From: Terriglobia bacterium
Lineage (GTDB): Bacteria; Acidobacteriota; Terriglobia; 20CM-2-55-15
Direction: 5' to 3'
DNA: 64,000 nt
NCBI GenBank assembly: GCA_965218585.1
Contig: CBDCLE010000024.1
Location: forward strand, 192,001-256,000
Shown: one piece after another, positions 5,041 to 58,978 of the stretch
Layout: the number at the start of each line of letters is the position of its first letter
How positions within the stretch are numbered: the stretch's first letter is position 1
Translations under genes and position numbers: made by a program
Notes under the pieces: generated by a model
What the model was told of the DNA's origin: nothing
Database searches by the model: none
Seen by the model: the letters and a program-made list of their open reading frames with translations, nothing else

Positions 5041-5958
5041 TCAATCTACCCGAGTCAGCCAGCCCTCAGGCGCTGCGGCCTCTCCACTGACAATGCTGAA
5101 AAATCGGGATTGGATCTTTTCGGTGATCGGCCCTCTCTGTCCGGCACCCACGTTGATGCGATCGACCGATCGGATGGGCGTGATCTCCGCTGCCGTTCCC
5201 GTGAAGAACAACTCGTCGGCGATGTAGAGCCATTCCCGAGGAATGGCCTGTTCGGAAACCTTCAATCCAGACTCTTCGCAGATGGCGAGGACCGAGTCGC
5301 GTGTAACTCCGGCCAGGACAGACTGGTCGACGGCGGGTGTGTAAATCATCCCATCACGGACCAGGAAAATGTTTTCGCCGCTCCCTTCGCTCACGTAGCC
5401 ATCGGTGTCGAGCGCGATACCCTCGGCGTATCCGTTCGTAACGGCTTCAATCTTGACCAGTTGCGAATTCAGGTAGTGGCCCGCTGCCTTAGCCGTTGCC
5501 GGCGACGTATTTGGAGCCGGCCGCGCCCAGGTGGACACGCAGACATCCACGCCTGTTTCCAAGGCTTCCTGTCCGAGGTAGGTGCCCCATTCCCACACTG
5601 CGATATAGGTGTCGATCGGGATTCCGGCCGGGTCGATCCCAAGATGGCCGTAGCCGCGCAGGACGATAGGCCGGATGTAGCAGGCCTCAAGTCGATTGGC
5701 GCGAATCGTTTCCAAAACGGCCTTTTCGAGAGCCGCTTCGTCGTAAGGCATCTCCAGTCTGTAGATCTTTGCCGAGTTGGCCAGCCTTCGAAGATGGGAG
5801 TCCAGCCGGAACACCATCGAACCCGATTGAGTCTTGTAACAGCGTATACCCTCAAAGCAGGCTGACCCATAGTGAACGACATGGGAGAGCACATGGATTT
5901 GAGCGCTGTCCCAGTCGATGAGTTCGCCATTGCGCCAGATTTTTTCCGATCGAGTCAT
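5041..5958 (-). CDS. ilvE: Branched-chain amino acid aminotransferase
   Basis: [39 protein letters not shown]. Confidence 0.96.
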
Positions 5959-6012
5959 AGGCTATGAACAGGCATAATGTGCCCTTAACCAACATGTTAC
6001 ACTGAGCCGGCC

Positions 6013-6543
6013 ATGCTTAAGGTGAAATTCGGCACCACAGTCGTGCTCCTGTTATTGGTCGGTTCGCTCGCAGGATGCGGCTATCGGCTGGCTGGAGATC
6101 GCATCGATTCGGGTGAGGGACAGACGTTGGGCGTCCCTGTTTTTAGAAGCCTTACGACGGACTTCAGAATCGAACAACAGCTGACCGAGTCCGTGCGCCG
6201 CGAACTCATTCGGCGAACGCGTTATCGGGTCATACCCTCCCGGGATGGCGATGTTGTCGTTACAGGAGAAGTTCTCAGCATGACTTCGATTCCGATCATT
6301 TTTACCAATCAGGGACGGGGCACGGCTTACACCGTCGCTGTTGATGTGAGTGTTCGCGTCATCGATACGTCCGACGGCAGCGTCCTGTTCCAGAACGACA
6401 GGTGGACGTTCAGCGAAGTGTTTGAGCTCTCCAACAACTCGGAAGAATTCGTTCCTGAAGACTCGGCAGCGATCGATCGACTGGCGGGCCAATTCGCGTC
6501 CTCTCTGGTCGCGTCTCTCACGTTTGCGAATACAAGTCCGTGA
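6013..6543 (+). CDS. lptE: LPS assembly lipoprotein LptE family
   Basis: Lipobox LAGC followed by GYRL; directly upstream of holA. Confidence 0.85.
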   Translation: MLKVKFGTTVVLLLLVGSLAGCGYRLAGDRIDSGEGQTLGVPVFRSLTTDFRIEQQLTESVRRELIRRTRYRVIPSRDGDVVVTGEVLSMTSIPIIFTNQGRGTAYTVAVDVSVRVIDTSDGSVLFQNDRWTFSEVFELSNNSEEFVPEDSAAIDRLAGQFASSLVASLTFANTSP

Positions 6544-7493
6544 AATTTTCTGAATTTCGAAGACACACGCCGAAGTCGTCAAGCCACGCTTACGTGTTCG
6601 TGTGTGAAGATGCGTTTCTGGTCGAGGAATCGAAGGCCGTATGGGCGGGCATTTTCGGTGGGGACTGGGGATTCGAGAAACTCACCGTAAAAGAATTCGA
6701 ATCTATCGATGCATCGGAGTTGATGGAGTCGGCAATGAGTTCTCCGCTGTTCGGTCCCTCCCGCGCGCTCCTGGTAACCAACGCCGGCAAGGTCACCAAG
6801 AAGAGGTTGGCTGACATCGAACACATCCTCGAGCTGGGGCAGTCTTCGCTGAAGATCGTTCTGGTCGTGGAGTCACGACGGTCGAAAATTGGTGGAAAGA
6901 CCCGGATTCCGGTCATCGAAATCGACCCTCTTCGCCCTGCGGATACGGCCCGTTGGGTTCGTGACAAGTACGGCGTTGCTCCTGAAGTGGCCCGTTACAT
7001 CGTCGACAACGTTGGGACTGAACTGCAGGTTCTCCATGGGGAAATGGAGAAATTGGAAATCTACCTCCGGGGGGCCCGGCCGGCGGAAACTACCGATGTC
7101 GACCAGTTGATTCTGCGATCGGAACAGTTTGGCCCATTTGAACTGGACGACGCTTTTCTGGACGGTGACTATCCTCGCTCGGTCCGTGTGGTAGGCGCGA
7201 TGATCGAGGAAGGTGTGGAGCCGATTCTCATCCTGTCCCGGATCGTTCGGGTTTGGCGCCAGATATTTGTCGGAAATGTTTTGGAGGGTCGGGCCTCGCC
7301 CGACGACGTCGCCCGGGCGGCTTCAGTCCCTCATTGGAAGGCAGCCACTTTCGTCAACGCGTGCAGGCGATTCGGATACGAGCGCGTCGTTGAAGGTTTT
7401 GGGGAACTGGTTCGTGCAGACCGGGCCTTGAAGACGTCGTCTCCCAATCCAGAATTCTATTTTGATGTGATGCTGTGGAAACTGATGAGGTAA
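6540..7493 (+). CDS. holA: DNA polymerase III delta subunit
   Basis: EMEKLEIY, FELDDA, ADRALKTS; lptE-holA-rpsT context. Confidence 0.88.
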   Translation: MKFSEFRRHTPKSSSHAYVFVCEDAFLVEESKAVWAGIFGGDWGFEKLTVKEFESIDASELMESAMSSPLFGPSRALLVTNAGKVTKKRLADIEHILELGQSSLKIVLVVESRRSKIGGKTRIPVIEIDPLRPADTARWVRDKYGVAPEVARYIVDNVGTELQVLHGEMEKLEIYLRGARPAETTDVDQLILRSEQFGPFELDDAFLDGDYPRSVRVVGAMIEEGVEPILILSRIVRVWRQIFVGNVLEGRASPDDVARAASVPHWKAATFVNACRRFGYERVVEGFGELVRADRALKTSSPNPEFYFDVMLWKLMR

Positions 7494-12316: not shown

Positions 12317-12416
12317 CCTCGGCGGTCACCCAAAACCGGCCAATGGTGGTCACCTGAAAACCGGCCAACGATAGAGGCCCGGGACATTGACAGCAGGCGG
12401 AGTAATCTCCGTCGGC

Positions 12417-14033
12417 ATGAGCAATGTCTTGAGCACAGAAAAGAGAGAACAAGTTGTTGCATTGGGGCGGCTTGGATGGCCGCTGCGTCGGATTGAACAG
12501 ACCACTGGCGTTCGCCGTGAGACGGCCAGTGGGTATCTGAGAGCGGCCGGAATCCCCGTACGGCCGCCCGGTAGCTGGGGCCGGCGACCGGCAAAACCGG
12601 CCAACGAGGTGACCACCGACCCGGACGGCGTAAGTGGTGTCGTTGAAAGGGTTGGCGATTCCGATATTTCAAAACCGGCCAACGAAGTGACCACCGACTC
12701 GGAGGCCGAGAATCCGGTCCCGGCAGAGTCGTCGAGCCCACCGTCGAGCAGTTCCTGCGAGCCGTACCGGGAGACGATCGAACAGGCGCTGGAGCGTGGC
12801 CGCAACGCGATGGCGATCTGGCAGGACCTGGTTACGGATCATGGCTTTGCCAGCAGCTACGAAGCGGTCAAGCGGTTCGTTCGCAAACTCCGGGGCGTGC
12901 GGTCTCCCGTAGCGGTCGGCATCATCCAAACCGACCCTGGAGAAGAAGCCCAGGTCGACTACGGAACCGGACCCATGGTTCGGGATCCGAAGACCGGCAA
13001 GTACCGGCGGACCCGGCTGTTCGTGATGACGCTGGGCTACAGCCGCAAATCCGTGCGGTTGCTGAGCTTCAAATCCAGTTCCCTTATCTGGGCCCAGCTG
13101 CACGAGACCGCGTTCCGGCGCCTGGGTGGCAGTCCCCGTCTCATGATCCTGGACAACCTGCGCGAGGGTGTGATCGACCCGGAGTATTACGACCCCACGC
13201 TGAATCCGCTGTTCCGGGATGTGCTGGCTCACTACGGCGTGGTGGCCCTGCCATGCCGGGTGCGCGACCCAGACCGCAAAGGGAAAGTGGAGTCCGGGGT
13301 GGGACACGCCCAGAAGACCCCACTGAAGGGACAGCGCTTCGAGAGCCTCGAGGAGGCTCAGGCGTATCTGGACCGGTGGGCCGACACCCGCATCCACGGC
13401 ACGACCAAGCGGCAGGTGGGGGCCATGTTCGCTGAAGAGAAGCCGTCGCTAAAGCGGCTGCCGATCGAACCCTTCCGCTACTACAAGTACGGGCAGCGTG
13501 TCGTCCATCTCGACGGTTGTGTGGAAGTCGAAGCGGCCTATTACGGTTTACCGCCCGGTTGGATCGGACGAACGGTCAAAGTGCAGTGGGACACTCTCCA
13601 CGTCCGGATCCTCGACCCGAACACCTATCAACTCCTGCGGGAGCATGTCCGTCAAAAACGCGGTGGATATCGTGTCCGCCCCGAAGACAATCCCAAAAAG
13701 ACGCCCCTAACTACCGTGCAACTGCTCGCCCGCGCCCGCCGCGCCGGAACCCATATCGGCACGCTATGTGAGGGGATTCATCGCCGACAGGGGAAGGCTG
13801 CGGTCCGCCGCATCCTGGGTGTACTCTCCCTGGCCAAGAGGTACGGTGTGTCCGCCGTCGAGGATGCTTCGGCTGTGGCACTGGAACTCCACGTCTACGA
13901 GTATCGTTTCCTCCGCCGCTATCTGGAGCGGCGACCTCCACTCGCACTCCGTCAGGTCGATCCTCTCATTCGTGAACTGACCCAGTATCGCGATCTCATC
14001 AACCTCAAGATCCAGGAGCAGGAACAATCATGA
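12417..14033 (+). CDS. istA: IS21 transposase IstA
   Basis: PGEEAQVDYG, DNLREGV, KGKVESGV, RIHGTT; ATG 12417 preferred over TTG 12387. Confidence 0.93.
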   Translation: MSNVLSTEKREQVVALGRLGWPLRRIEQTTGVRRETASGYLRAAGIPVRPPGSWGRRPAKPANEVTTDPDGVSGVVERVGDSDISKPANEVTTDSEAENPVPAESSSPPSSSSCEPYRETIEQALERGRNAMAIWQDLVTDHGFASSYEAVKRFVRKLRGVRSPVAVGIIQTDPGEEAQVDYGTGPMVRDPKTGKYRRTRLFVMTLGYSRKSVRLLSFKSSSLIWAQLHETAFRRLGGSPRLMILDNLREGVIDPEYYDPTLNPLFRDVLAHYGVVALPCRVRDPDRKGKVESGVGHAQKTPLKGQRFESLEEAQAYLDRWADTRIHGTTKRQVGAMFAEEKPSLKRLPIEPFRYYKYGQRVVHLDGCVEVEAAYYGLPPGWIGRTVKVQWDTLHVRILDPNTYQLLREHVRQKRGGYRVRPEDNPKKTPLTTVQLLARARRAGTHIGTLCEGIHRRQGKAAVRRILGVLSLAKRYGVSAVEDASAVALELHVYEYRFLRRYLERRPPLALRQVDPLIRELTQYRDLINLKIQEQEQS

Positions 14034-14785
14034 ATCTCATTGAACTCCAGCGGGCTCTCCGACAACTCCGTCTCGGCGGCATCGCCGAGGTCCTGGAAAC
14101 ACGACTCCACCAGGCCCAGACCGAACCCATGGCGCCGATCGATCTGGTCTCCCGCCTAGTCTCCGACGAACTGGACCGTCGCAGCATCCGACTGCTGGAA
14201 CGCCGGCGGAAGCAAGCCCGGTTCCGCGATCCCCACAAGACGCTGGACAGCTTCGACTTCACTTTCAACAAGAAGATGAATCGCAGTCTGGTCTTCGATC
14301 TGGCCACGGCCGCATTCATCTCCAGACACGAAGACGCCTTGTTTCTCGGTCCACCCGGCACCGGCAAGAGTCATCTGGCTCAGGCCATCGGTCTGGCCGC
14401 CATCGAGCAAGGCTATCGGGTCGTCTACCGTGAAACCCATGCCCTTCTCGACGACATCGCCGAAGCCACCATCGACGGGACCCGTAAGGAGTTTATGGAG
14501 GCTCTGGCCACGGTCCCGTTGCTGATCATCGACGACCTGGGGATACGGAAGCTCCCCCCGACTGCAGCAGAGGAACTTCTCGAGATCGTTATGCGACGGT
14601 ATGAACGAACCAGCACGTTACTGACATCGAATCGGCCCGTCGAAGACTGGGGCAAACTACTCGGCGACAGCGCGGCTGTGACTGCGATGCTGGATCGGTT
14701 GCTCCATCACGGCCACATCCTCAAGTGCGGGCCTCGGAGTTGGCGCACCAAAACGGGCTTGCCGACTCCCCCACGAAAGGGGTAG
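14030..14785 (+). CDS. istB: IS21 helper ATPase IstB
   Basis: GPPGTGKSHLA, LLIIDDLG, TSNRP, LDRLLHH. Confidence 0.95.
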   Translation: MNLIELQRALRQLRLGGIAEVLETRLHQAQTEPMAPIDLVSRLVSDELDRRSIRLLERRRKQARFRDPHKTLDSFDFTFNKKMNRSLVFDLATAAFISRHEDALFLGPPGTGKSHLAQAIGLAAIEQGYRVVYRETHALLDDIAEATIDGTRKEFMEALATVPLLIIDDLGIRKLPPTAAEELLEIVMRRYERTSTLLTSNRPVEDWGKLLGDSAAVTAMLDRLLHHGHILKCGPRSWRTKTGLPTPPRKG

Positions 14786-15754: not shown

Positions 15755-17120
15755 GAGGTCGTTCCAATCGGTGTGTAAAAAGAGAAGGCGGTGTACGCTT
15801 TCGGTGAATTCGGAACCGTAAGCAATCCCGGCAGCAATCGGGAGAAAGGTACACCACCCATGAAGAAGAAGAACATACCGGCATCAGTGGCGTCAACGAA
15901 CGCGTATGAAGGTTTGGAGGACTGGGCGCGATCCCGGGTCCAAGTCTGGCTACAGGAGCTGCTCGAGGACGAAGTCACTCAATTTCTGGGTCGGGAAAAG
16001 TCGGAGCGGAGTCCGAATCGACGAGGATACCGGAACGGTCACGGGAAGCCGCGACGCTTCGCAATGATGAACGGTACGATGGAGGTTCGACGACCTCGGG
16101 TTCGAAACACCGCCGAGCGGTTCGAGAGTCAGATCCTGCCGTATTTTCGACGGAAATCGAAACAGCTGGGCGAGCTACTTCCCGATCTCTACCTCCACGG
16201 TCTGGCCACAGGGGACTTCGAGCAGGCCATGCGCGGACTGCTTGGCGCTGGCGCTCCGTTGTCGCGAGCATCGATCCAACGACTGAAATCGGCCTGGCAG
16301 TTGGAGTATGACGAGTGGGTCCAGCAGGACCTGTCCGGCCTCGAGGTCGTGTACCAGTGGGCAGACGGCTTGTACGTGAAAGCCGGGGATCGCGAAAGAG
16401 CGAGCGGCATTGCTGGTGATCATCGGAGCCTTGTCAGACGGGCGCAAAGTGGTGTTGGCCTGTGAGAGCGGGCAGCGGGAAAGCAAGGAGTCCTGGAGCC
16501 GCATTCTGCGCAATCTCCAGAGACGGGGCCTGAAGCTGGGACGGCTGACTGTCGCGGACGGTCACCTGGGCATCTGGTCCGCGCTGGCCGAGCAACAGCC
16601 CCAGGGCCAGGAACAACGCTGCTGGAACCACAAGTCGATCAACGTGGTCGATCATCTGCCGAAGACCGAGCAGCCCGCGGCCAGACAGCTGCTTCATGGG
16701 ATGGCCTTCGCGAACTCCCGCGCGGCCTGCGAACGAAAGCGGGATCAGTTCGTCCGCCGATATGAGAAGAACTATCCCAAAGCGGGTGAGACGCTGTTGC
16801 GGGACTGGGACCGGATGATTACTTTCTATGAGTTCCCGAAACAACACTGGGTGCATCTGAGAACAACCAACATCGTCGAATCGCCCTTCGACATGGTTCG
16901 CCTCCGCACCAACGCCGCTCGCCGATTCAAGCGTGTCGAGAATGCAACGGCAATGATCTGGAAGCTACTACGTGTCGCTGAGAAGGCTTGGCGACACTTA
17001 AAAGGATCCGAACTCTTACAAGAGGTCTATGATGGTCAGCAATTCGCTGACGGCATCAGAGTCGTGATGAAATCGAAGGCCGCCGCCTGATGACTTTTAC
17101 ACACCTTTTGTAATGACCTC
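15755..17120 (+). mobile_element. IS256-family element with 8-bp target duplication
   Basis: IRs gaggtcgttccaatcggtgtgtaaaa / ttttacacaccttttgtaatgacctc; ATTCCTCT at 15747-15754 and 17121-17128. Confidence 0.95.
15860..17090 (+). CDS. IS256 (Mutator) transposase split by one extra G near 16386-16389
   Basis: GYRNG, WADGLYVKAG, ADGHLG, QRCWNHK, LRTTNIVES; removing one G joins the two ORFs (KAGIAKERAALLVIIG). Confidence 0.9.
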
Positions 17121-50406: not shown

Positions 50407-52083
50407 ATGGCGCTGTACGCTCTGGCCGCACTCGTTCCGGTTCTGGCAGTGATGTTCTTTTTGGTCGTTCTGCGTTGGCCCGCGACCCGGGCGATGCCCG
50501 TTGCCTATGTGTTGACCGTTGTGGTCGCGTTGTGGATATGGGGCGTTCCCGTGATCCATATCATCGCGGCAACGTTCCGGGGTGGGGTAATTGCGCTCAC
50601 GCTGCTGTGGATCATTTTTGGTGCAATCCTGCTCTTGTTTACGCTGCGGGAGAGCGGCGCGGTCACGACTATACGGCGAGGGTTCATGGGAATATCCAAG
50701 GACCGCCGTGTTCAGCTTATTATCGTGGCTTGGCTCTTCGGTTCCTTCATTGAAGGAGCGGCCGGATTCGGTACGCCAGCCGCAGTAGCATCCCCACTCC
50801 TGTTGGCTCTCGGTTTCCCAGCGCTGGCGGCCGTTATGGCGACGCTGATTATTCAGAGTACGCCGGTCAGCTTCGGTGCCGTCGGCACGCCGATCATGGT
50901 CGGAATGGGACAGTCTCTCAACGTGCCGTTGGTCGAAGAGGCGCTCTCGGCGGAAGGTATCGCGTACGCTGATTTTCTTTACCAGATCGGTATGTTCACG
51001 GCGATTCCCCATGCGATAGCCGGAACGTTGATTCCTCTGATCATCGTGTGTATGACCACACGATTCTTTGGTGAGAACCGATCGTTTCGAGAGGGACTGG
51101 GGGCCTGGAAGTTCTGTCTGTTCGCCGGCCTTAGCTTCGTCGTTCCGTACGTCTTGGTCGCCATATTCCTGGGTCCGGAATTCCCCAGTCTCCTCGGTGC
51201 ACTGATCGGTTTGGCGATCGTCGTGACCGGTTCCCGTGCCGGGTTGTTTCAACCGAAAGGCGAGCCCTGGGATTTTCCGCCCAGAAGTCAGTGGGAGGCA
51301 GGCTGGATCGGGAACATTGTTGCGGACGCCGGTGAGGAGCGTCGTCACATGACGCTCTTTCTGGCCTGGGTACCCTACCTGCTCGTGGCTGCGCTTCTGG
51401 TCGTCACGCGTCTGCCCTTTTTGCCGTTCCAGAGTTATTTGAGTTCCGTGAGTTGGAACTGGGCGAACATTTTGGGGACAAGCTTGTCCCAGAGTGTTGA
51501 GCCACTCTACTCTCCCGGTACGATCTTTATTCTGGTTGCGCTGGCGACGATCGTTCTCCACAAGATGACCCGCAAAGAGACGAGCTTTGCGTGGACGGAC
51601 GCGGCTCACAAGATGGCTGGTCCAGCCCTGGCTCTGGTCTTCGCGGTGGGTTTGGTCCGGGTGTTTATCGATTCCAATACGAACATATCGGGTCTGGACA
51701 GCATGCCGCTTGTCCTAGCTGAGTACGTAGCTGGAATCGCGCAGGGTACCTGGCCCTTCTTCGCGCCGATTATTGGTGCTATGGGTGCGTTTGTGGCTGG
51801 AAGCAATACAGTCAGCGATCTGATGTTTGCGCTGTTTCAGTACGGGGTTGCGGACAACATCGGGACATCGCGCATCGTGATCCTGGGTCTACAAGCTGTT
51901 GGGGGAGCCGCGGGTAACATGATCTGCGTGCACAACGTTGTGGCGGCCAGTGCTACTGTGGGTCTTGTCGGTAAGGAGGGTGCTCTGATTCGTCGGACGA
52001 TTCTGCCGATGACTTACTACGTGGTGGTTGCCGGGGCGCTCGGACTTCTCTTTTCCTACGTCCTGTTCCCGAACATGTTTTGA
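50407..52083 (+). CDS. lldP: L-lactate permease
   Basis: [30 protein letters not shown]. Confidence 0.93.
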
Positions 52084-52177
52084 ATCGTTCAGGGCTTTTA
52101 GCCCTCAGCCCTCAGCTGTGAGTCTTGATGCAGGCTCGGCTTCGAAACCGATAGCTGACAGCCTGACGCCGTCCAGC

Positions 52178-52528
52178 TTAACTTGCCTTCTTATGCATCG
52201 CCTGGTGCTTTGCGGCCAGGTGTATTTTCTTGATCTGCCGCTTCAGGTCATGGACCTTCCGTCGCAGTTCTCTTAGATTCTTGTGGTCATTGGCCTCGAT
52301 CAGCTGGGCCCGCTGAGTTTTCAGCTCCTGGATCTGTTTCTTGAGATCGCTCTTGCTGTGGACCGTTGCGTCAGCCAACTCTTCGTGTGGTTTTTCGATG
52401 CCCAATACTCCGGCCAATTCTTCGATCAGCTGGGCTTTGTTCTTTCCGCTGACTGCACTGAGTCCCTTCTCGTGCGCTTCTTCGCGAAGCTTCACGACCG
52501 TCATTTTCTCCAGATCATGCCATTCCAT
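52178..52528 (-). CDS. Small basic protein with Rho-N-like helix-extension-helix
   Basis: LEKMTVVKLREEA..SGKNKAQLI. Confidence 0.7.
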   Translation of the reverse strand: MEWHDLEKMTVVKLREEAHEKGLSAVSGKNKAQLIEELAGVLGIEKPHEELADATVHSKSDLKKQIQELKTQRAQLIEANDHKNLRELRRKVHDLKRQIKKIHLAAKHQAMHKKAS

Positions 52529-52749
52529 TTGAGGAAACCTTTCTCCCGGGCGAGCAAAAACCAGGGTCCAGACTGCCCGGGCCGTGACAGCTTATCGAAC
52601 GGAATGTGTGCAGGTCAAATATCGGCCGGTGCGGCCTATGACCACACGTCGTATTCATTTGACTGTGCGCCGATAGAGCGCATCTATCAGAAGAAGGTAC
52701 AATTGCAAGGACTGTACCTGGAGAGGGGGCCTTTGGCTGAAAGAGTGTC

Positions 52750-53571
52750 ATGTCCGGACCACTGGAAAACCGAACCGTAGCGATCACAGAGCATCGTTTT
52801 GAGAATGAATTGATGACTCTGATCGAAAGACATGGTGCCCGGGTTCTTTCCTGTCCGCTGCTGGAAGAGCGTCCGGTCGGGAACCGGTTTGAGTTACAGG
52901 TCTTTATAAGAGAACTCATCGCGGATGGATTCGACTTCATGGTGTTTTTCACGGGAGTCGGTGCCCGGTTTATTGCCCAAGAGGCCGATACGATGGAGCA
53001 GTCGGATCAATACAGGCAAGCGCTCGGCGGAATGAAAGTCGTGGCTCGGGGCAACAAACCCAGATCAGCGTTGGCGAAGCTGGGATTAGGTGTAGATCTG
53101 GCGCCAGAAAAAGCGACTTCTGAAGGTTTGCTCGAACTGCTCGCGGAGGAAGGGATCGATGGAAAACGCGTCGGGGTTCAGCTCTACGGCAGCCCGAACC
53201 CGGATTTCATCGCGGGCCTGGAAAACCTTGGGGCTCGGATCACAGTCGTTCAGGTCTACAACTATGGCCCGGCTTCGGATTCGGAGCGGGTGGTCGGTTT
53301 TATCGATACACTACTTTCCGGCGAAGTTGACGTGATCACCTTTACCAGTGCGCCGCAGGTCGAGTCTCTCTTCGACACTGCCAATACGGCGGGCCGAGCA
53401 GGGAAACTCGGTGTCGCTTTGAACGAGAAAATCTCTGTTGCAGCAGTGGGCGAAGTAACCGAGCGGGCGTTGGTTGGCTACGGGATCACCGTGCGGATTC
53501 TTCCCAGGGCGCCAAAGATGGGCCCTCTGGCGGATGCGATTGCTCAGTATTTCGACAAGAGACAATGGTGA
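52750..53571 (+). CDS. hemD: Uroporphyrinogen-III synthase
   Basis: FFTGVG, VARGNKP, ITFTSAPQV, AVGEVT; next to cysG. Confidence 0.9.
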   Translation: MSGPLENRTVAITEHRFENELMTLIERHGARVLSCPLLEERPVGNRFELQVFIRELIADGFDFMVFFTGVGARFIAQEADTMEQSDQYRQALGGMKVVARGNKPRSALAKLGLGVDLAPEKATSEGLLELLAEEGIDGKRVGVQLYGSPNPDFIAGLENLGARITVVQVYNYGPASDSERVVGFIDTLLSGEVDVITFTSAPQVESLFDTANTAGRAGKLGVALNEKISVAAVGEVTERALVGYGITVRILPRAPKMGPLADAIAQYFDKRQW

Positions 53572-54979
53572 AGTATTTTCCGATTTCGTTGAACGTGAAG
53601 AGCCGGGACGTGACGGTGATCGGGGGTGGTCTGATCGCCGAGCAACGGGTCGAGACGTTGCTCGAGTGTGAGGCGCGCGTGAAGGTCATCAGCCCGGAGG
53701 TGACGGAAAGGCTAAAGTCTCTTGCCGAGGACGGTTCCATTCGCGTTCAGTTGCGCGGCTACGCGCCCGGGGATCTTGACGGCGCGTGGGTGGCGCTGGC
53801 TGCCGCCGATGATTCATCTGTCAATGACGCAGCCTGGGGTGAGGCGCGAGAGCGTGACATTCCTATCAATGTGGCGGACGATGCTTCCCGGTGTGATTTC
53901 ATCATGCCCGCGCTCGTGCGCCGAGGCGATCTGACAATTGCGATATCCACGGGTGGCACGAGCCCTGCTCTGGCAGCTCGATTGCGGCGCCGTATATCCG
54001 CGATCGTGGGACCCGAATACGGGAAGCTGCTCCGGGTCTTGAGCCGCGTTCGGTCCCGGCTGAAACAGTCGGTGCCCGACGATGAAGAACGCAAGAAACT
54101 GCACTACCGGATCGTGGATTCGAAGATCCTTGGGAGAATACTCGAATCAGAACGCGAGATAGTCGATTCCGAGATCGATGAAATCATCAGGGATGCTTCC
54201 CGAACAGAACCCGAGGCAGAAGGTGTTGTGTATATCGTCGGCGCCGGTCCAGGGGACCCGGGTCTGATCACCTGGCGCGGTCTGGAGTGTGTGCGCCATG
54301 CCGATGTGATCTTGCACGATCGTCTCACGGACCCACGCCTGCTGGAGGAGTCGGGTCCGGGTGCAGAGGTCATCGACGTCGGAAAACGCGCCGGAGATCG
54401 CGGCCGCATGCAGGATTTCATCCATGAAACGATGGTCGAGCGGGCTCGGCGTGGTCAGATAGTCTGTCGTCTGAAAGGGGGAGATCCTTTTGTATTTGGG
54501 CGGGGCGGGGAAGAGGCGATGGCGTTGACCGGGGCCGACGTTCCCTTTGAAATCATACCCGGAGTGACCAGTGCGATCGCAGCGCCGGCTGCTGCCGGAA
54601 TACCGTCACGCACCGTGGTGCGGCGCATTCTTTCATGGTGATGACAGGTTCCCGGGCCGACGATGCCAGTCCCGAGGAATGGGCGGGAGCGGGAAGCATT
54701 CTTGCGGGAGGAGGAACGTTGGTGGTCCTGATGGGGCTGTCCCGTCTGGATGTCATCGTGAAACGGCTCAGTGAAGCTGGTTGTTCAGGTGAGACGCCTG
54801 CTGCTGTGATTTCTCGTGGAGCCTGGACCGAACAGGATGTTCGTATCGGGACACTGGAAGACATCAAGACTCGATCGGGAGGAATCGCGTCGCCCGCGGT
54901 AATCGTTTTCGGTGTGACCATCGAGGAGAGAGGCCGGCTCCGAGAGGTACGTGCCGCTATGTCGAACAGAAAAGCGTGA
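53565..54979 (+). CDS. cysG: Siroheme synthase, frameshifted near 54603-54605
   Basis: IAISTGGTSPALA, VGAGPGDPGL, RLKGGDPFVFGRGGEE; adding 1 nt restores GIPVTHRG and joins ORF 54635..54979. Confidence 0.9.
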
Positions 54980-54993
54980 GGCGGAACCGAGTC

Positions 54994-55275
54994 TTAGATT
55001 CGCCCGCCGGAGATCGCTGGAATAATCGCAACTTCCGCTCCTGTTGGAACCTTTGTCTTCAGGTCGTCCAGGAAACGTACATCTTCGCCATCGACGTAGA
55101 TGTTGAAGAAGCGTCTTAATTCTCCCGTGTCTTCACACAGGCGGTCTTTGAGCCCCGGATATTTCTGATCCAACTCATCGAGAATGTCCGAGATCGTCTC
55201 GGCCTGGACATCGATCTGGGAATCCTCTGCGGTGAAATGCCTGAGGGGTGTAGGGATGGTGACCCGAGTCGTCAT
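54994..55275 (-). CDS. MoaD/ThiS-family sulfur carrier (CysO-like)
   Basis: VTIPTPLR, NIYVDGEDVRFL, C-terminal ISGGRI. Confidence 0.92.
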   Translation of the reverse strand: MTTRVTIPTPLRHFTAEDSQIDVQAETISDILDELDQKYPGLKDRLCEDTGELRRFFNIYVDGEDVRFLDDLKTKVPTGAEVAIIPAISGGRI

Positions 55276-55300
55276 CGAATTCCTCCGTTCTTAATTTGAC

Positions 55301-56539
55301 TTACGCGGTTAGGCCCAGTTCGTTCACGGCAGCATCGAATGCTCCAAGTTTTGCTTCGATCACTCTTGGAGACTGAAGGTTTAGAGCATCTTGCGTCTTC
55401 AGGCCGTTTCCGGTGATCGCAATAACTGTCTGGTCATGAGGCTTTATCTTTCCCTGTGCAACAAGTTTTCGAGTCACTCCTAGAGCGACTCCCCCGGCAG
55501 TTTCGGTGAAGATGCCTTCGGTTTCAGCCAGCAATTGAATGTTTTCGACTATCTCTTCGTCTGTAACGTCTTCGCCCCACCCACCTGAAGTGGTCATGAT
55601 TTCTGCTGCATAGTATCCGTCTGCGGGCGACCCAATTGCGAGTGACTTGGCGATAGTCGCCGGTTTTACGGGTCGAATGTTCCGGGTTCCGTTTTTGACT
55701 GCTGCCGTTATTGGATTGCAGCCGGTTGCCTGAGCACCGTAAAGCTTGGTTTGAACCGGTGCCTCCAGCAATCCCAGGTTTTCGAATTCTTTCATTCCCA
55801 TGTGAATTTTCGTAATCAGGGATCCTCCGGCCATGGGGACAACGACCGCGTCGGGCGCGCGCCATCCGAGCTGCTCGGCGATTTCGTACCCGAACGACTT
55901 TGACCCGTCACCATAGTAAGGCCGCAGGTTGACGTTGACGAACCCCCAGCCATAACTGTCGGCAACCTGGCTACAGAGGCGGTTGACGTCGTCGTAGTTG
56001 CCGGCAACGGCGATGACGTGGGAGCCATATATAGAAGTAGCGATGACCTTGGCTGTCTCCAGATCCTCAGGAATCAATATCCAGGCGGGCAGTCCGGCTG
56101 CGGCGGCATTAGCCGCGACTGAATTTGCGAGGTTTCCGGTGGAAGCACAGCCGACGGCAGGTAGTCCGAATTCCAGAGCCTTGTTGATCGCGACGGCGGT
56201 GACGCGGTCTTTAAAAGACAGTGTCGGGAAGTTTACGCCCTCGTTCTTGATGTAAAGCTCATCGATGCCGATTTCACGTCCCAGTCGCTGGGCATGAACC
56301 AGAGGTGTGCCTCCCGTCGCCAGTCCGATCTGAGGGTCGTCGTCAATCGGCAGCAGTTCGCGGTAACGCCAGATGGAATTGTCGCGCGAGCGGATGACCT
56401 CTCGCGTTAAGACCCTACCGATTGCTTCGTAGTCGTATTCGACCTTGAGAGGGGCGAAACACTCCTGACACCCGGCAATCGGGGTCTTAGGGTACTGATG
56501 GCCGCATTCTCGACAGCTTAGCCCCGTAACGAAGCTCAT
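55301..56539 (-). CDS. thrC: Threonine synthase-like PLP enzyme
   Basis: CxxC..CxxC N-terminus, PTLSFKDR, ASTGNLA, ITGNGLKT. Confidence 0.88.
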   Translation of the reverse strand: MSFVTGLSCRECGHQYPKTPIAGCQECFAPLKVEYDYEAIGRVLTREVIRSRDNSIWRYRELLPIDDDPQIGLATGGTPLVHAQRLGREIGIDELYIKNEGVNFPTLSFKDRVTAVAINKALEFGLPAVGCASTGNLANSVAANAAAAGLPAWILIPEDLETAKVIATSIYGSHVIAVAGNYDDVNRLCSQVADSYGWGFVNVNLRPYYGDGSKSFGYEIAEQLGWRAPDAVVVPMAGGSLITKIHMGMKEFENLGLLEAPVQTKLYGAQATGCNPITAAVKNGTRNIRPVKPATIAKSLAIGSPADGYYAAEIMTTSGGWGEDVTDEEIVENIQLLAETEGIFTETAGGVALGVTRKLVAQGKIKPHDQTVIAITGNGLKTQDALNLQSPRVIEAKLGAFDAAVNELGLTA

Positions 56540-56576
56540 TCATCTCTCCTGGGCGCGTACCAGCGGGTTCCACAAT

Positions 56577-56614
56577 AAAAAAAGAACCCCGCGCCATACA
56601 GCACGGGGTTCTTT
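56577..56614 (-). terminator. Intrinsic terminator after the downstream aptamer
   Basis: aaagaaccccgtgc..gcgcggggttcttt followed by a U-run. Confidence 0.88.
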
Positions 56615-56628
56615 CGAAATCCGCCGGA

Positions 56629-56677
56629 CTGTTTAGCACATTTTTAACGTGGAGCAATTTGTCTTTAAATCGCCACG
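56629..56677 (-). ncRNA. SAM-II-like riboswitch aptamer 2
   Basis: CGUGG-CGAUUU-AAAGACAA-AUUGC-U-CCACG-UUAAAAAUGU-GCUAAACAG fits the SAM-II pattern GAUUU..UUGC..GCUAAA. Confidence 0.78.
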
Positions 56678-56688
56678 CTGCCCATACT

Positions 56689-56717
56689 AAAAACCCTACG
56701 CCAACGGCGCAGGGCTT
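56689..56717 (-). terminator. Intrinsic terminator after the upstream aptamer
   Basis: aagccctgcgcc gtt ggcgtagggttttt. Confidence 0.8.
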
Positions 56718-56733
56718 CAGTGGGACACCTGAG

Positions 56734-56780
56734 CTGTTTAGCACATTTTTAACGTGGAGCAATTTGCGTAAATCACCACG
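56734..56780 (-). ncRNA. SAM-II-like riboswitch aptamer 1
   Basis: CGUGG-UGAUUU-ACGCAA-AUUGC-U-CCACG-UUAAAAAUGU-GCUAAACAG. Confidence 0.8.
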
Positions 56781-56862
56781 CCTAACCAGCCCAGTGAGAA
56801 TAGCCCGGTGCAGTCTGCACCGTCAACTTATCTTTTCGTCGGACCCCGCGAAGAAAGTGGCG

Positions 56863-56950
56863 AAAAAGTGGGGACAGGTCACTCTTTTTGCGTCTGTGCC
56901 GCACTCGAAGACGAAGAGCGGGCAAAAAGAGTGACCTGTCCCCACTTTTT
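56863..56950. repeat. Perfect 29-bp inverted repeat (GGGGACAG/CTGTCCCC type)
   Basis: aaaaagtggggacaggtcactctttttgc-N30-gcaaaaagagtgacctgtccccacttttt. Confidence 0.9.
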
Positions 56951-57055
56951 TAAAGACGCCGGCTTCCAGGCTGAAGGGCTATCATAAAGATAGGACGGAA
57001 AGGGGTTTAGATCGTTGTTGAAGGCTGCAAGGACGCAAGAAGTGGGGGTTCTGTA

Positions 57056-58978
57056 GTGGGCGAGTTGATGGTCAAGCGCTTGAAGACCGACCAGCTGAGG
57101 CACTTCGCCAAGACGCTTTTACGTGATGTGCGGGCCCTGGAGCGAATGCTTTCGGAAGGCTTGATCCAGTCGGGCCAGCGCCGGATAGGCTGTGAACAGG
57201 AAATGTTTCTCGTCGACAGGGCGTGGCGGCCGTTTCCGGTAGCGCTGGAGATACTCGACCGGCTGGGGGATGCACATTTCACGACCGAACTCGGGCGCTT
57301 CAATCTGGAAGCGAATCTCGACCCTCAGGCGTTCGAAGGGGACTGCCTGTCGCGGATGGAAGCAGATCTTCTGGCCAAGCTTGCCGCCGTACGCGAGGTT
57401 GCCCATGGGATGGGCGGAGAGATCGTTCTGACGGGTATTCTTCCAACGCTGCGGAAGTCGGACCTCGTTCTTGACAACCTGACTCCCAAGCCACGTTATT
57501 ACGCGCTCAACGAAGCCATGAATCAACTTCGTGGCGGCGATTATGAGTTTAGGTTGCGGGCTTCGGATGAACTCATCGTCAAACAGGATTCCGTCATGCT
57601 GGAATCCTGCTGCACCAGTTTTCAGATCCACTATCAAACCGATCCGGAAGATTTTGTCCAGCTCTACAATGGGGCGCAGGCGTTCACAGCGCCGCTTCTT
57701 GCAGCAGCTGTCAACTCTCCGATGCTGTTCGGCCGGCGTCTGTGGTTCGAAACCCGCGTACCTCTGTTTCAGCAGGCTATCGATACGCGCCGAGCAACGG
57801 CATCACTGAGAGAGCGTTCGTCGCGCGTAAGTTTTGGGGAACGTTGGTTGGAAGGTTCTGTTGTGGAGTTGTTCCGTGAAGACATTGCCCGATTCCGCAT
57901 TCTGCTGGGTGTTGAAGTCGACGAAGATTCACTTGCCACCCTCAAACAGGGGGAGATTCCCGATTTGAGGGCACTTCAGGTACACAACGGAACAGTTTAT
58001 CGATGGAACCGCGCCTGTTACGGCTCGAACGGCACGACGCCGCACCTAAGGATTGAAAATCGTGTTCTGCCCTCAGGTCCGACAGTTCTGGATGAGGTGG
58101 CAAACGCTGCGCTGTTCTTCGGACTGATGCATGCCATGCCTGACGCATACCCGAACCTCTCCAATGTGATGGATTTTGACGATGCACACGTGAACCTCAT
58201 GGTTGCCGCACAGACGGGATTGAAAGCGCGCTTTCGGTGGATTCACGGAAGAGCCATATCCGCAGGGGATCTGATCCTCGAAGAGTTGTTGCCGATTGCA
58301 CGGGAGGGTTTGAAGTCTGGGGGAATCACCCAGGCTGATGTAGACCGGTATCTGGGCGTCATTGAAGAACGGGTGTCGGCGGGCCGAACCGGAGCACAGT
58401 GGATGTTGAAGTCGTTTGCCGACACTCGGGGGCTTCGTCGGGATGCTGCGCTCACGGCTTTGACGGCGGCGACAGTCCAGCGACAGTGGAGTGGAGAGCC
58501 GGGCTATCGGTGGAAGCCTGCAACATTGGAGGAAGGTATGACCCTCGAACGCCAGAAATTGCGGATCGAAGAATCGATGAGCACAGATCTGTTTACGATT
58601 CATCCGGACGAACCCATCGACCTAGTGACGAATCTGATGGACTGGAAGCGCATTCGCCACGTTCCCGTTGAAGATGACGACGGACGGTTAGTGGGACTCG
58701 TGTCTTATTCTGAGGTGCTCCGATACTTCAACCAGGGTGGAAAGGAAGAAGGCCTTCCGGTATCTGCGGATTCTATTATGGATCCTGAACCAGTGACCGT
58801 ATCACCGGAAACACCGGTGTTGGATGCGATCTCGTTGATGACCGAAAAGAAAGCTGATTGTCTGCTTGTGGTCAAGGATGAGCGGCTTGTGGGGATTGTG
58901 ACCGAACATGACGTGCTGAGTCTGGCAGCGCACCTTCTCGCTGAAGGCCAGAATGGTGCCGGGGTTCGGAACGGATGA
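57056..58978 (+). CDS. Glutamate--cysteine ligase (GCS2-like) protein with C-terminal CBS pair
   Basis: IGCEQEM, TELGRFNLE, SFQIH, NSPMLFG, HLRIENR, CBS motifs. Confidence 0.88.
   Translation: MGELMVKRLKTDQLRHFAKTLLRDVRALERMLSEGLIQSGQRRIGCEQEMFLVDRAWRPFPVALEILDRLGDAHFTTELGRFNLEANLDPQAFEGDCLSRMEADLLAKLAAVREVAHGMGGEIVLTGILPTLRKSDLVLDNLTPKPRYYALNEAMNQLRGGDYEFRLRASDELIVKQDSVMLESCCTSFQIHYQTDPEDFVQLYNGAQAFTAPLLAAAVNSPMLFGRRLWFETRVPLFQQAIDTRRATASLRERSSRVSFGERWLEGSVVELFREDIARFRILLGVEVDEDSLATLKQGEIPDLRALQVHNGTVYRWNRACYGSNGTTPHLRIENRVLPSGPTVLDEVANAALFFGLMHAMPDAYPNLSNVMDFDDAHVNLMVAAQTGLKARFRWIHGRAISAGDLILEELLPIAREGLKSGGITQADVDRYLGVIEERVSAGRTGAQWMLKSFADTRGLRRDAALTALTAATVQRQWSGEPGYRWKPATLEEGMTLERQKLRIEESMSTDLFTIHPDEPIDLVTNLMDWKRIRHVPVEDDDGRLVGLVSYSEVLRYFNQGGKEEGLPVSADSIMDPEPVTVSPETPVLDAISLMTEKKADCLLVVKDERLVGIVTEHDVLSLAAHLLAEGQNGAGVRNG

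Follow-up and report, generated by a model that had tools for sequence, protein, structure and literature searches.

Probable tandem SAM-II-type riboswitches, each with an intrinsic terminator, ahead of a metM/metO-like operon in an acidobacterial genome

The DNA analysed in the present study, hereafter the window, is a 64,000-nt stretch of contig CBDCLE010000024.1 (assembly GCA_965218585.1) from a Terriglobia bacterium. Two adjoining genes on its minus strand are preceded by a leader that contains a repeat (Table 1). The first gene encodes a ThrC-family PLP enzyme with approximately 55 extra N-terminal residues, including two CxxC pairs, which are missing from solved threonine synthases; the threonine synthases in the PDB align to it only from about residue 55. 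The second encodes a ThiS/MoaD-like protein in which two residues follow the Gly-Gly; this protein may need C-terminal trimming before it could act as a sulfur carrier. With a ThrC-family PLP enzyme adjoining a ThiS-family carrier that has a near-C-terminal Gly-Gly, the pair looks like MetM/MetO and, based on sequence, is a candidate homocysteine synthase with its sulfur carrier. The MetM/MetO route, in which homocysteine is made from O-phospho-L-homoserine (PMC13759103; PMC12172450), is listed in Table 2 of PMC13759103, citing Hasebe 2024. There too a ThrC-family enzyme adjoins a ThiS-like carrier with a SAM riboswitch on the 5′ side, the riboswitch being reported upstream of S. albulus metM in the available text of PMC12172450. 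This likeness is known here from the gene families and their order. The preliminary description of this DNA had called the first gene thrC-like, which is correct as to family, but together with its ThiS-like neighbour the gene is better read as part of a MetM/MetO-type homocysteine synthase pair. A scan of genome contigs with the protein downstream of the leader returned 80 loci, and a ThiS-like homologue was detected by tblastn in eight of these, after the thrC-like gene in seven and 2.6 kb downstream in the eighth.

Other features of the window include a siroheme synthase (cysG-like) gene on the plus strand that is split into overlapping ORFs at 53565-54641 and 54635-54979 (358 and 114 aa), matching positions 2-131 and 155-211 of the TP_methylase profile; the nearest relative, L001, has an intact ORF of 470 aa (5799-7211), and the split is apparently a frameshift or a sequencing error. 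At 12387-14785 and 15791-17090 on the plus strand there are an IS21-type pair (an rve/Mu-transposase-like ORF and IstB) and two ORFs that together make up a split Mutator-family transposase.

Table 1. Features of the leader and of the two genes that follow it, in window coordinates and in the direction of transcription.
Feature	Position	Strand	Basis
Promoter-like site, TTGACG-18 nt-TATTCT	56797..56826	minus	Consensus scan
Aptamer 1, SAM-II type	56732..56781	minus	RF00521 match
Aptamer 1, P1	56781-56776 with 56757-56752	minus	
Aptamer 1, third strand GAUUU	56774-56770	minus	
Aptamer 1, P2a 5′ strand	56768-56766	minus	
Aptamer 1, descending strand AAAUUGC	56765-56759	minus	
Aptamer 1, ascending strand GCUAAA	56742-56737	minus	
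Aptamer 1, P2a 3′ strand	56734-56732	minus	
Intrinsic terminator 1: AGCCCUGCGCC, loop GUU, GGCGUAGGGUU, overlaps U5	56689..56716	minus	Folds
Aptamer 2, SAM-II type	56627..56678	minus	RF00521 match
Aptamer 2, P1	56678-56673 with 56652-56647	minus	
Aptamer 2, third strand GAUUU	56671-56667	minus	
Aptamer 2, P2a 5′ strand GAC	56663-56661	minus	
Aptamer 2, descending strand	56660-56654	minus	
Aptamer 2, ascending strand GCUAAA	56637-56632	minus	
Aptamer 2, P2a 3′ strand GUC	56629-56627	minus	
Intrinsic terminator 2: 16-pair stem, 4-nt loop, then U7	56574..56615	minus	Consensus scan, inverted repeat I3
Shine-Dalgarno AGGAGAG (56550-56544) and ATG (56539-56537) of the first gene	56537..56550	minus	Sequence, ORF start
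ThrC-family PLP enzyme, 412 aa	55301..56539	minus	TIGR00260 285 bits, PF00291 226 bits
ThiS/MoaD-like protein, 93 aa, ends SGGRI	54994..55275	minus	PF02597 E 6.7e-15, NF041918 64.4 bits

The leader is approximately 250 nt long (56790-56530, minus strand) and lies 5′ of the ORF that starts at 56539. Within it, the minus strand from 56781 to 56574 reads as two units of aptamer plus terminator, so that two complete aptamers are present, each with its own putative expression platform. A block of 33 nt is 100 % identical between 56629-56661 and 56734-56766, at a spacing of 105 nt. The core pattern GATTT..TTGC..GCTAAA occurs at two sites in the 64-kb window, both of them in the tandem leader, where shuffles lead to an expectation of 0.02; none of 100 shuffled windows contained two or more sites. 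At -115.2 kcal/mol (z = -6.3), the fold of the 271-nt leader is not equalled by any of 200 shuffles. The consensus scan of 56300-57200 found one promoter-like site, 5′ of both units (shuffle mean 0.4), and none between them. Transcription probably starts near 56791-56789, and it is likely that both units are carried on a single transcript. The preliminary description had noted two minus-strand units with a shared 33-nt block, each followed by a hairpin and U-run, 5′ of the thrC-like gene, and the sequence, repeat and fold evidence bears this out.

Just 5′ of the metM-like promoter there is also a 29-nt perfect inverted repeat (56863-56891 and 56922-56950) with a 30-nt spacer. It lies in a divergent intergenic region, has A/T runs on its flanks, is unique in the window, and is about where the synteny with L001 ends. 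The mir-3926 matches obtained from Rfam align to this repeat and were set aside.

No Rfam model matches anywhere in the window at gathering thresholds. In a sub-threshold search of 651 nt (56450-57100) with E-value reporting, RF00521 (SAM_alpha, SAM-II), for which the gathering score is 36 bits, aligned with aptamer 2 at 29.9 bits (E 8.4e-5) and with aptamer 1 at 26.7 bits (E 6.4e-4), in both cases over model positions 1-79 and in both cases below that score. RF00521 SAM_alpha is the metA motif of the Alphaproteobacteria. The conserved blocks CGUGG, GAUUU, UUGC, CCACGUUAAA, and GCUAAA are all aligned in both units. The loss of score was traced to the segment between GAUUU and UUGC, which is 4-7 nt here and approximately 13 nt and GC-rich, forming a long P2a strand, in the consensus. 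The related model RF01726 (SAM-II long loop) scored 15.9 bits on unit 1, and RF01826 (SAM-V) was absent from the 27 Rfam matches at E ≤ 10 in the 651 nt. Matches to Thr_leader, Leu_leader and PyrR, at 22-27 bits where the cut-offs are 50-55, and to F6 and similar models were rejected; they align mainly to the terminator hairpin. Because there are no Rfam matches at gathering, the assignment of the aptamers rests on sub-threshold matches together with comparative evidence. The SAM_alpha and SAM-V models had been named in the preliminary description among the means of checking its proposal; SAM_alpha aligns with each unit from end to end, although by its curated cut-off it matches neither, and SAM-V gave no match at E ≤ 10.

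Pairing in the pseudoknot was counted in an alignment of five aptamers from three genomes, two from the window and three from related loci. P1 consists of six pairs, fully formed (100 % of cells) in all five aptamers, and encloses the third strand and the P2 5′ strand; one of its pairs varies on one side, from G-U to A-U. The four pairs of P2b (UUGC with GC-U-AA, one U being bulged) are invariant in 5/5, as is GAUUU, and these elements therefore show complementarity only and no covariation. P2a is 2-3 bp long: columns 25-57 are C-G in all five, columns 23-59 are paired in three of the five, and columns 24-58 are G-C in three and A-U in two, a compensatory change that distinguishes the two units. 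In unit 1, P2a has only two standard pairs. Overall, 96.9 % of cells are paired, versus 23-48 % after the 3′ partners were shifted by 1-3 columns. Since P1 and P2b hardly vary, the covariation rests on one position, and between 50 and 56 of 500 column shuffles of the five aptamers matched the observed covariation measures. In the SAM-II/SAM-V pocket described in PMC6061858, U:A.U triples surround the sulfonium, a bulged U pairs with the adenine of SAM, and an A binds the aminoacyl end; when mapped onto the alignment by the author, the predicted counterparts of these contacts are all found in the invariant blocks.

The closest relatives among the 80 loci are from Acidobacteriota MAGs, which agrees with the atypical host proposed in the preliminary description. 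The nearest, L001, is from a Terriglobia MAG, with 86 % amino-acid identity. L001 is syntenic with window positions 51075-56837 at 72-78 % nucleotide identity, the synteny ending at the promoter; it has TTGACG and a TATCAT -10 box in the same relative place, and the same tandem. Orthologous aptamers are identical at 48/50 positions for unit 1 and 50/52 for unit 2 (approximately 96 %), while the adjoining 1.85 kb of coding DNA is 77.8 % identical, and paralogous aptamers are identical at 43-45 of 51-52 positions. Because the orthologous aptamers are more alike than the paralogous ones, both copies are older than the divergence of the two genomes; because they are far better conserved than the neighbouring coding DNA, both are under constraint. 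Inside the 33-nt block, both window copies have an A (56747 and 56642) where both L001 copies have a G (3789 and 3896), at alignment column 44. Such a parallel change suggests either that the tandem units have undergone gene conversion or that the same constraint acts on both.

Unit 2 of L001 scores 28.1 bits against RF00521, and unit 1 of L001 is not among the RF00521 matches at E ≤ 0.05. In L022, an Acidobacteria MAG (71 %), there is a single aptamer followed by a terminator (RF00521 25.7 bits). Across the window and the 80 loci (752,084 bases), a covariance model built from the five aptamers recovered only the five sequences on which it had been trained, and it is too narrow for canonical SAM-II. 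A relaxed core pattern matches in six of the 80 loci: L001 (two sites), L022 (one site), L003, L004 (1346-1419, minus strand), L012, and L013. The sites in L001 and L022 are real. The matches in L003 and L013 are a promoter-like stretch without P1; that in L012, at the same offset, was taken for the same stretch, the alignment starting past most of the L012 stretch. The L001 MAG also has a second thrC-like copy, 5′-truncated (residues 180-412) and with a ThiS-like partner, elsewhere on the same contig (L023 2900-3950), and in L023 approximately 1 kb of unannotated sequence lies 5′ of the truncated copy.

Orthologous genes are preceded on their own strand by a SAM-I riboswitch in half of the loci that were scanned with Rfam at gathering (6/17 and 12/19, 18/36 of the 80), which suggests that the signal is SAM. 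SAM control of this thrC-like gene family is widespread. Other Acidobacteriota are among these cases, for example L025 and L065 (Acidobacteria/Acidobacteriota) and L078 (Terriglobia), so that the window lineage has a SAM-II-type element where other loci, including those of its own phylum, have SAM-I. In many Vicinamibacterales and other Acidobacteriota (L050, L045, L038, L043, L074, L041, L061, L076, L068, and L078), SAM-I lies approximately 1.1-1.4 kb 5′ of the thrC-like gene; in L050 (2799-5236), which alone was examined, a homoserine dehydrogenase gene is between the two, giving an operon of SAM-I, hom and thrC-like gene. The thrC-like orthologues of Poribacteria (L003-L010, L012-L015, L017, L021, and L057) have a highly conserved leader of approximately 190 nt ending in an intrinsic terminator (for example, L003 3700-3885). 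The L003 leader has no Rfam match at gathering, nor at E ≤ 1 in L003 3560-4000, and in a 15-sequence alignment compensatory change is seen at only one of 46 predicted pairs. It is a candidate for an undescribed regulatory leader.

In the window, a GC-rich hairpin and a U-run follow each unit. The consensus scan made one terminator call, terminator 2 (56615-56580, then T7), a number equal to its shuffle mean of 1.0; the core hairpin of terminator 2 is at -21.9 kcal/mol. The hairpin of terminator 1 (56716-56692) has ten pairs in the fold and -18.6 kcal/mol, followed by U5. It was missed by the consensus scan, as the stem extends into the U-run, and it is present in every fold that contains its sequence. 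It is kept in L001 with a change from C-G to U-G. In an unconstrained fold of the 87-nt nascent transcript, which stops short of the terminator 3′ arm, the 5′ arm of terminator 1 pairs with the P1 5′ strand of aptamer 1, GGCGUGG, and CACGUU/AAUGUG forms an alternative hairpin that is not present in L022. In an unconstrained fold of the 195-nt nascent transcript, likewise cut off ahead of the 3′ arm, the 5′ arm of terminator 2 pairs with the tail of aptamer 2, ACAGUCCGG, which contains the P2a 3′ strand. The energies of these antiterminator duplexes are not better than chance, as mononucleotide shuffles equal that of the P1 strand in 44-427 of 500 and that of the tail in 14-112 of 500. Where the window and L001 differ in the terminator arms, the substitutions fit both pairings as well as the terminators themselves. 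Since both antiterminator partners are segments that would be held in the SAM-bound fold, the modelled antiterminator pairings are plausible in each unit.

If SAM were bound, the P1 5′ strand and the tail immediately following GCUAAA would be kept engaged by P1 and the pseudoknot. With those segments held, the 5′ arm of each terminator would be free for its 3′ arm, and transcription would stop. Without SAM, the P1 5′ strand or the tail could pair with the terminator 5′ arm as an antiterminator and allow read-through. A transcript would reach the genes only after escaping both checkpoints, and rising SAM would be expected to cause a steeper and more complete fall in expression than with a single switch. 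This predicted shape of the response follows the account that PMC9481103 gives of 'pseudo-cooperative' tandems.

In the order of its elements and in its blocks (P1 CGUGG/CCACG, GAUUU, UUGC, the UUAAA linker, and GCUAAA), each aptamer is like SAM-II; it also shares the H-type pseudoknot with P2a, the intrinsic terminator that comes next, and the position 5′ of a methionine-biosynthesis gene. It is unlike SAM-II in the stretch separating the third strand from UUGC, which is 4-7 nt in the window aptamers rather than approximately 13 nt, and in a P2a of 2-3 bp rather than 5 bp; in PMC6061858, a P2a of 5 bp, mostly C-G, is given for 60 % of SAM-II, and one of 2 bp for SAM-V and the translational metX SAM-II. 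The host also differs from the Alpha-, Beta- and Gammaproteobacteria and Bacteroidetes named in the available parts of PMC2258182 and PMC2864571. The binding-site architecture and very short P2a (approximately 2 bp; PMC6061858) of SAM-V (RF01826) and metX SAM-II are shared by the window aptamers, although here the platforms are terminators and there is no Shine-Dalgarno occlusion. The claim in the preliminary description that SAM-II switches are best known as single and translation-level does not hold against these sources. The majority of SAM-II are described as transcriptional or with terminators in PMC2258182 and PMC6061858, and in the former SAM-II is the class most often found with terminators in the Alpha- and Betaproteobacteria. 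Furthermore, 44 tandem SAM-II examples are reported in PMC9481103 (Sherlock et al. 2022), some with a terminator for each aptamer, and the window resembles these in that a single leader contains two SAM-II aptamers and an intrinsic terminator stem for each. In the available text of PMC12452182, SAM-II tandems are without specific mention.

Taken together, the leader of the metM/metO-like operon is best read as two complete SAM-II-type riboswitches in series, each with a terminator, forming serial SAM-dependent transcription OFF switches, to which a probability of roughly 80 % is given. This reading is supported by the full-length RF00521 alignments, the pairing, the conservation in L001, the single upstream promoter-like site, SAM-I at the orthologues, and the precedent in PMC9481103. 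The double transcriptional switch of two SAM-II-like aptamers with their own terminators, as initially proposed, is upheld by the end-to-end alignments, the L001 tandem and the SAM-I riboswitches 5′ of orthologous genes.

It is unlikely that just one of the units works, the other being a decaying duplicate or a constitutive terminator that lowers expression. Unit 1 would be the weaker candidate, given its lower RF00521 score, the absence of its L001 orthologue from the matches at E ≤ 0.05, and the two standard pairs of its P2a; L022 has a single unit, and the terminator 3′ of the SAM-II aptamer of S. meliloti metA was judged not to be riboswitch-controlled (PMC9373788). Decay is, however, not what unit 1 looks like, as it keeps all of the core blocks and is far closer to its L001 orthologue than the neighbouring coding DNA is, and its nascent-transcript fold has a competitor for the 5′ arm of terminator 1.

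A division of labour, with unit 1 terminating transcription and unit 2 controlling translation as in SAM-II/SAM-V tandems, is less probable still. Many of the 44 doublets in PMC9481103 do combine a terminator on the first aptamer with ribosome-binding-site control on the second, and the short P2a is reminiscent of the translational metX SAM-II and SAM-V (PMC6061858). Unit 2 nevertheless precedes the strongest terminator of the region, with 16 pairs and U7, and the Shine-Dalgarno, approximately 24 nt beyond the U-run of terminator 2 and approximately 77 nt beyond the P2a 3′ strand of unit 2, is outside the pseudoknot; there is also the missing SAM-V match. The chance is similarly slight that the units only resemble SAM-II and recognise something else, be it a protein or a different ligand such as SAH or another compound of the methionine cycle, or that they are no more than a duplicated terminator region. 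Scores under the curated cut-off and the short linker between the third strand and P2, 4-7 nt against approximately 13 in the Rfam consensus, would fit with this, but the blocks corresponding to the SAM pocket of the solved relatives (PMC6061858) are invariant in all five aptamers, SAM-I precedes the orthologous gene in 18 of 36 loci, and the competing Thr_leader, Leu_leader and PyrR matches fall mainly on the terminator hairpin.

Serial transcription OFF switches of SAM-II type remain the preferred reading, and a more specific proposal can be put forward tentatively: it is possible, if rather doubtful, that these aptamers belong to a compact acidobacterial subtype of the SAM-II fold, with a linker of 4-7 nt and a P2a of 2-3 bp, below all three Rfam SAM-II/V cut-offs, which combines a bistable P2a like that of metX/SAM-V with termination and which, within the phylum, has taken the place of SAM-I at the metM locus. 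The difference in P2a strength between the two copies, GC/GC versus GAC/GUC, may set two SAM thresholds. In PMC6061858, a short P2a goes with translational SAM-II/SAM-V and a 5-bp P2a with transcriptional switches; a compact subtype, if true, would depart from this published tie of short P2a to translational control.

A tandem with a terminator for each aptamer is already described in PMC9481103, and no new regulatory principle is involved here. What may be new, unless already listed among the 44 examples of PMC9481103, is the host phylum, the link to a metM/metO-like operon, and the compact aptamer below the cut-off. In the literature searched, no paper tying SAM-II riboswitches to Acidobacteriota or Acidobacteria was found; in the available part of PMC2864571, the terms occur in unrelated table rows. 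Since the curated Rfam cut-offs miss these aptamers, genome annotation of the phylum will overlook them. At the strength given above, the tandem extends SAM-II-type riboswitches to the Acidobacteriota and provides independent regulatory evidence for a role of the ThrC-like/ThiS-like pair in methionine synthesis, matching the MetM/MetO route. It would also be a natural case in which one gene family is under SAM-I in some lineages and under SAM-II in others.
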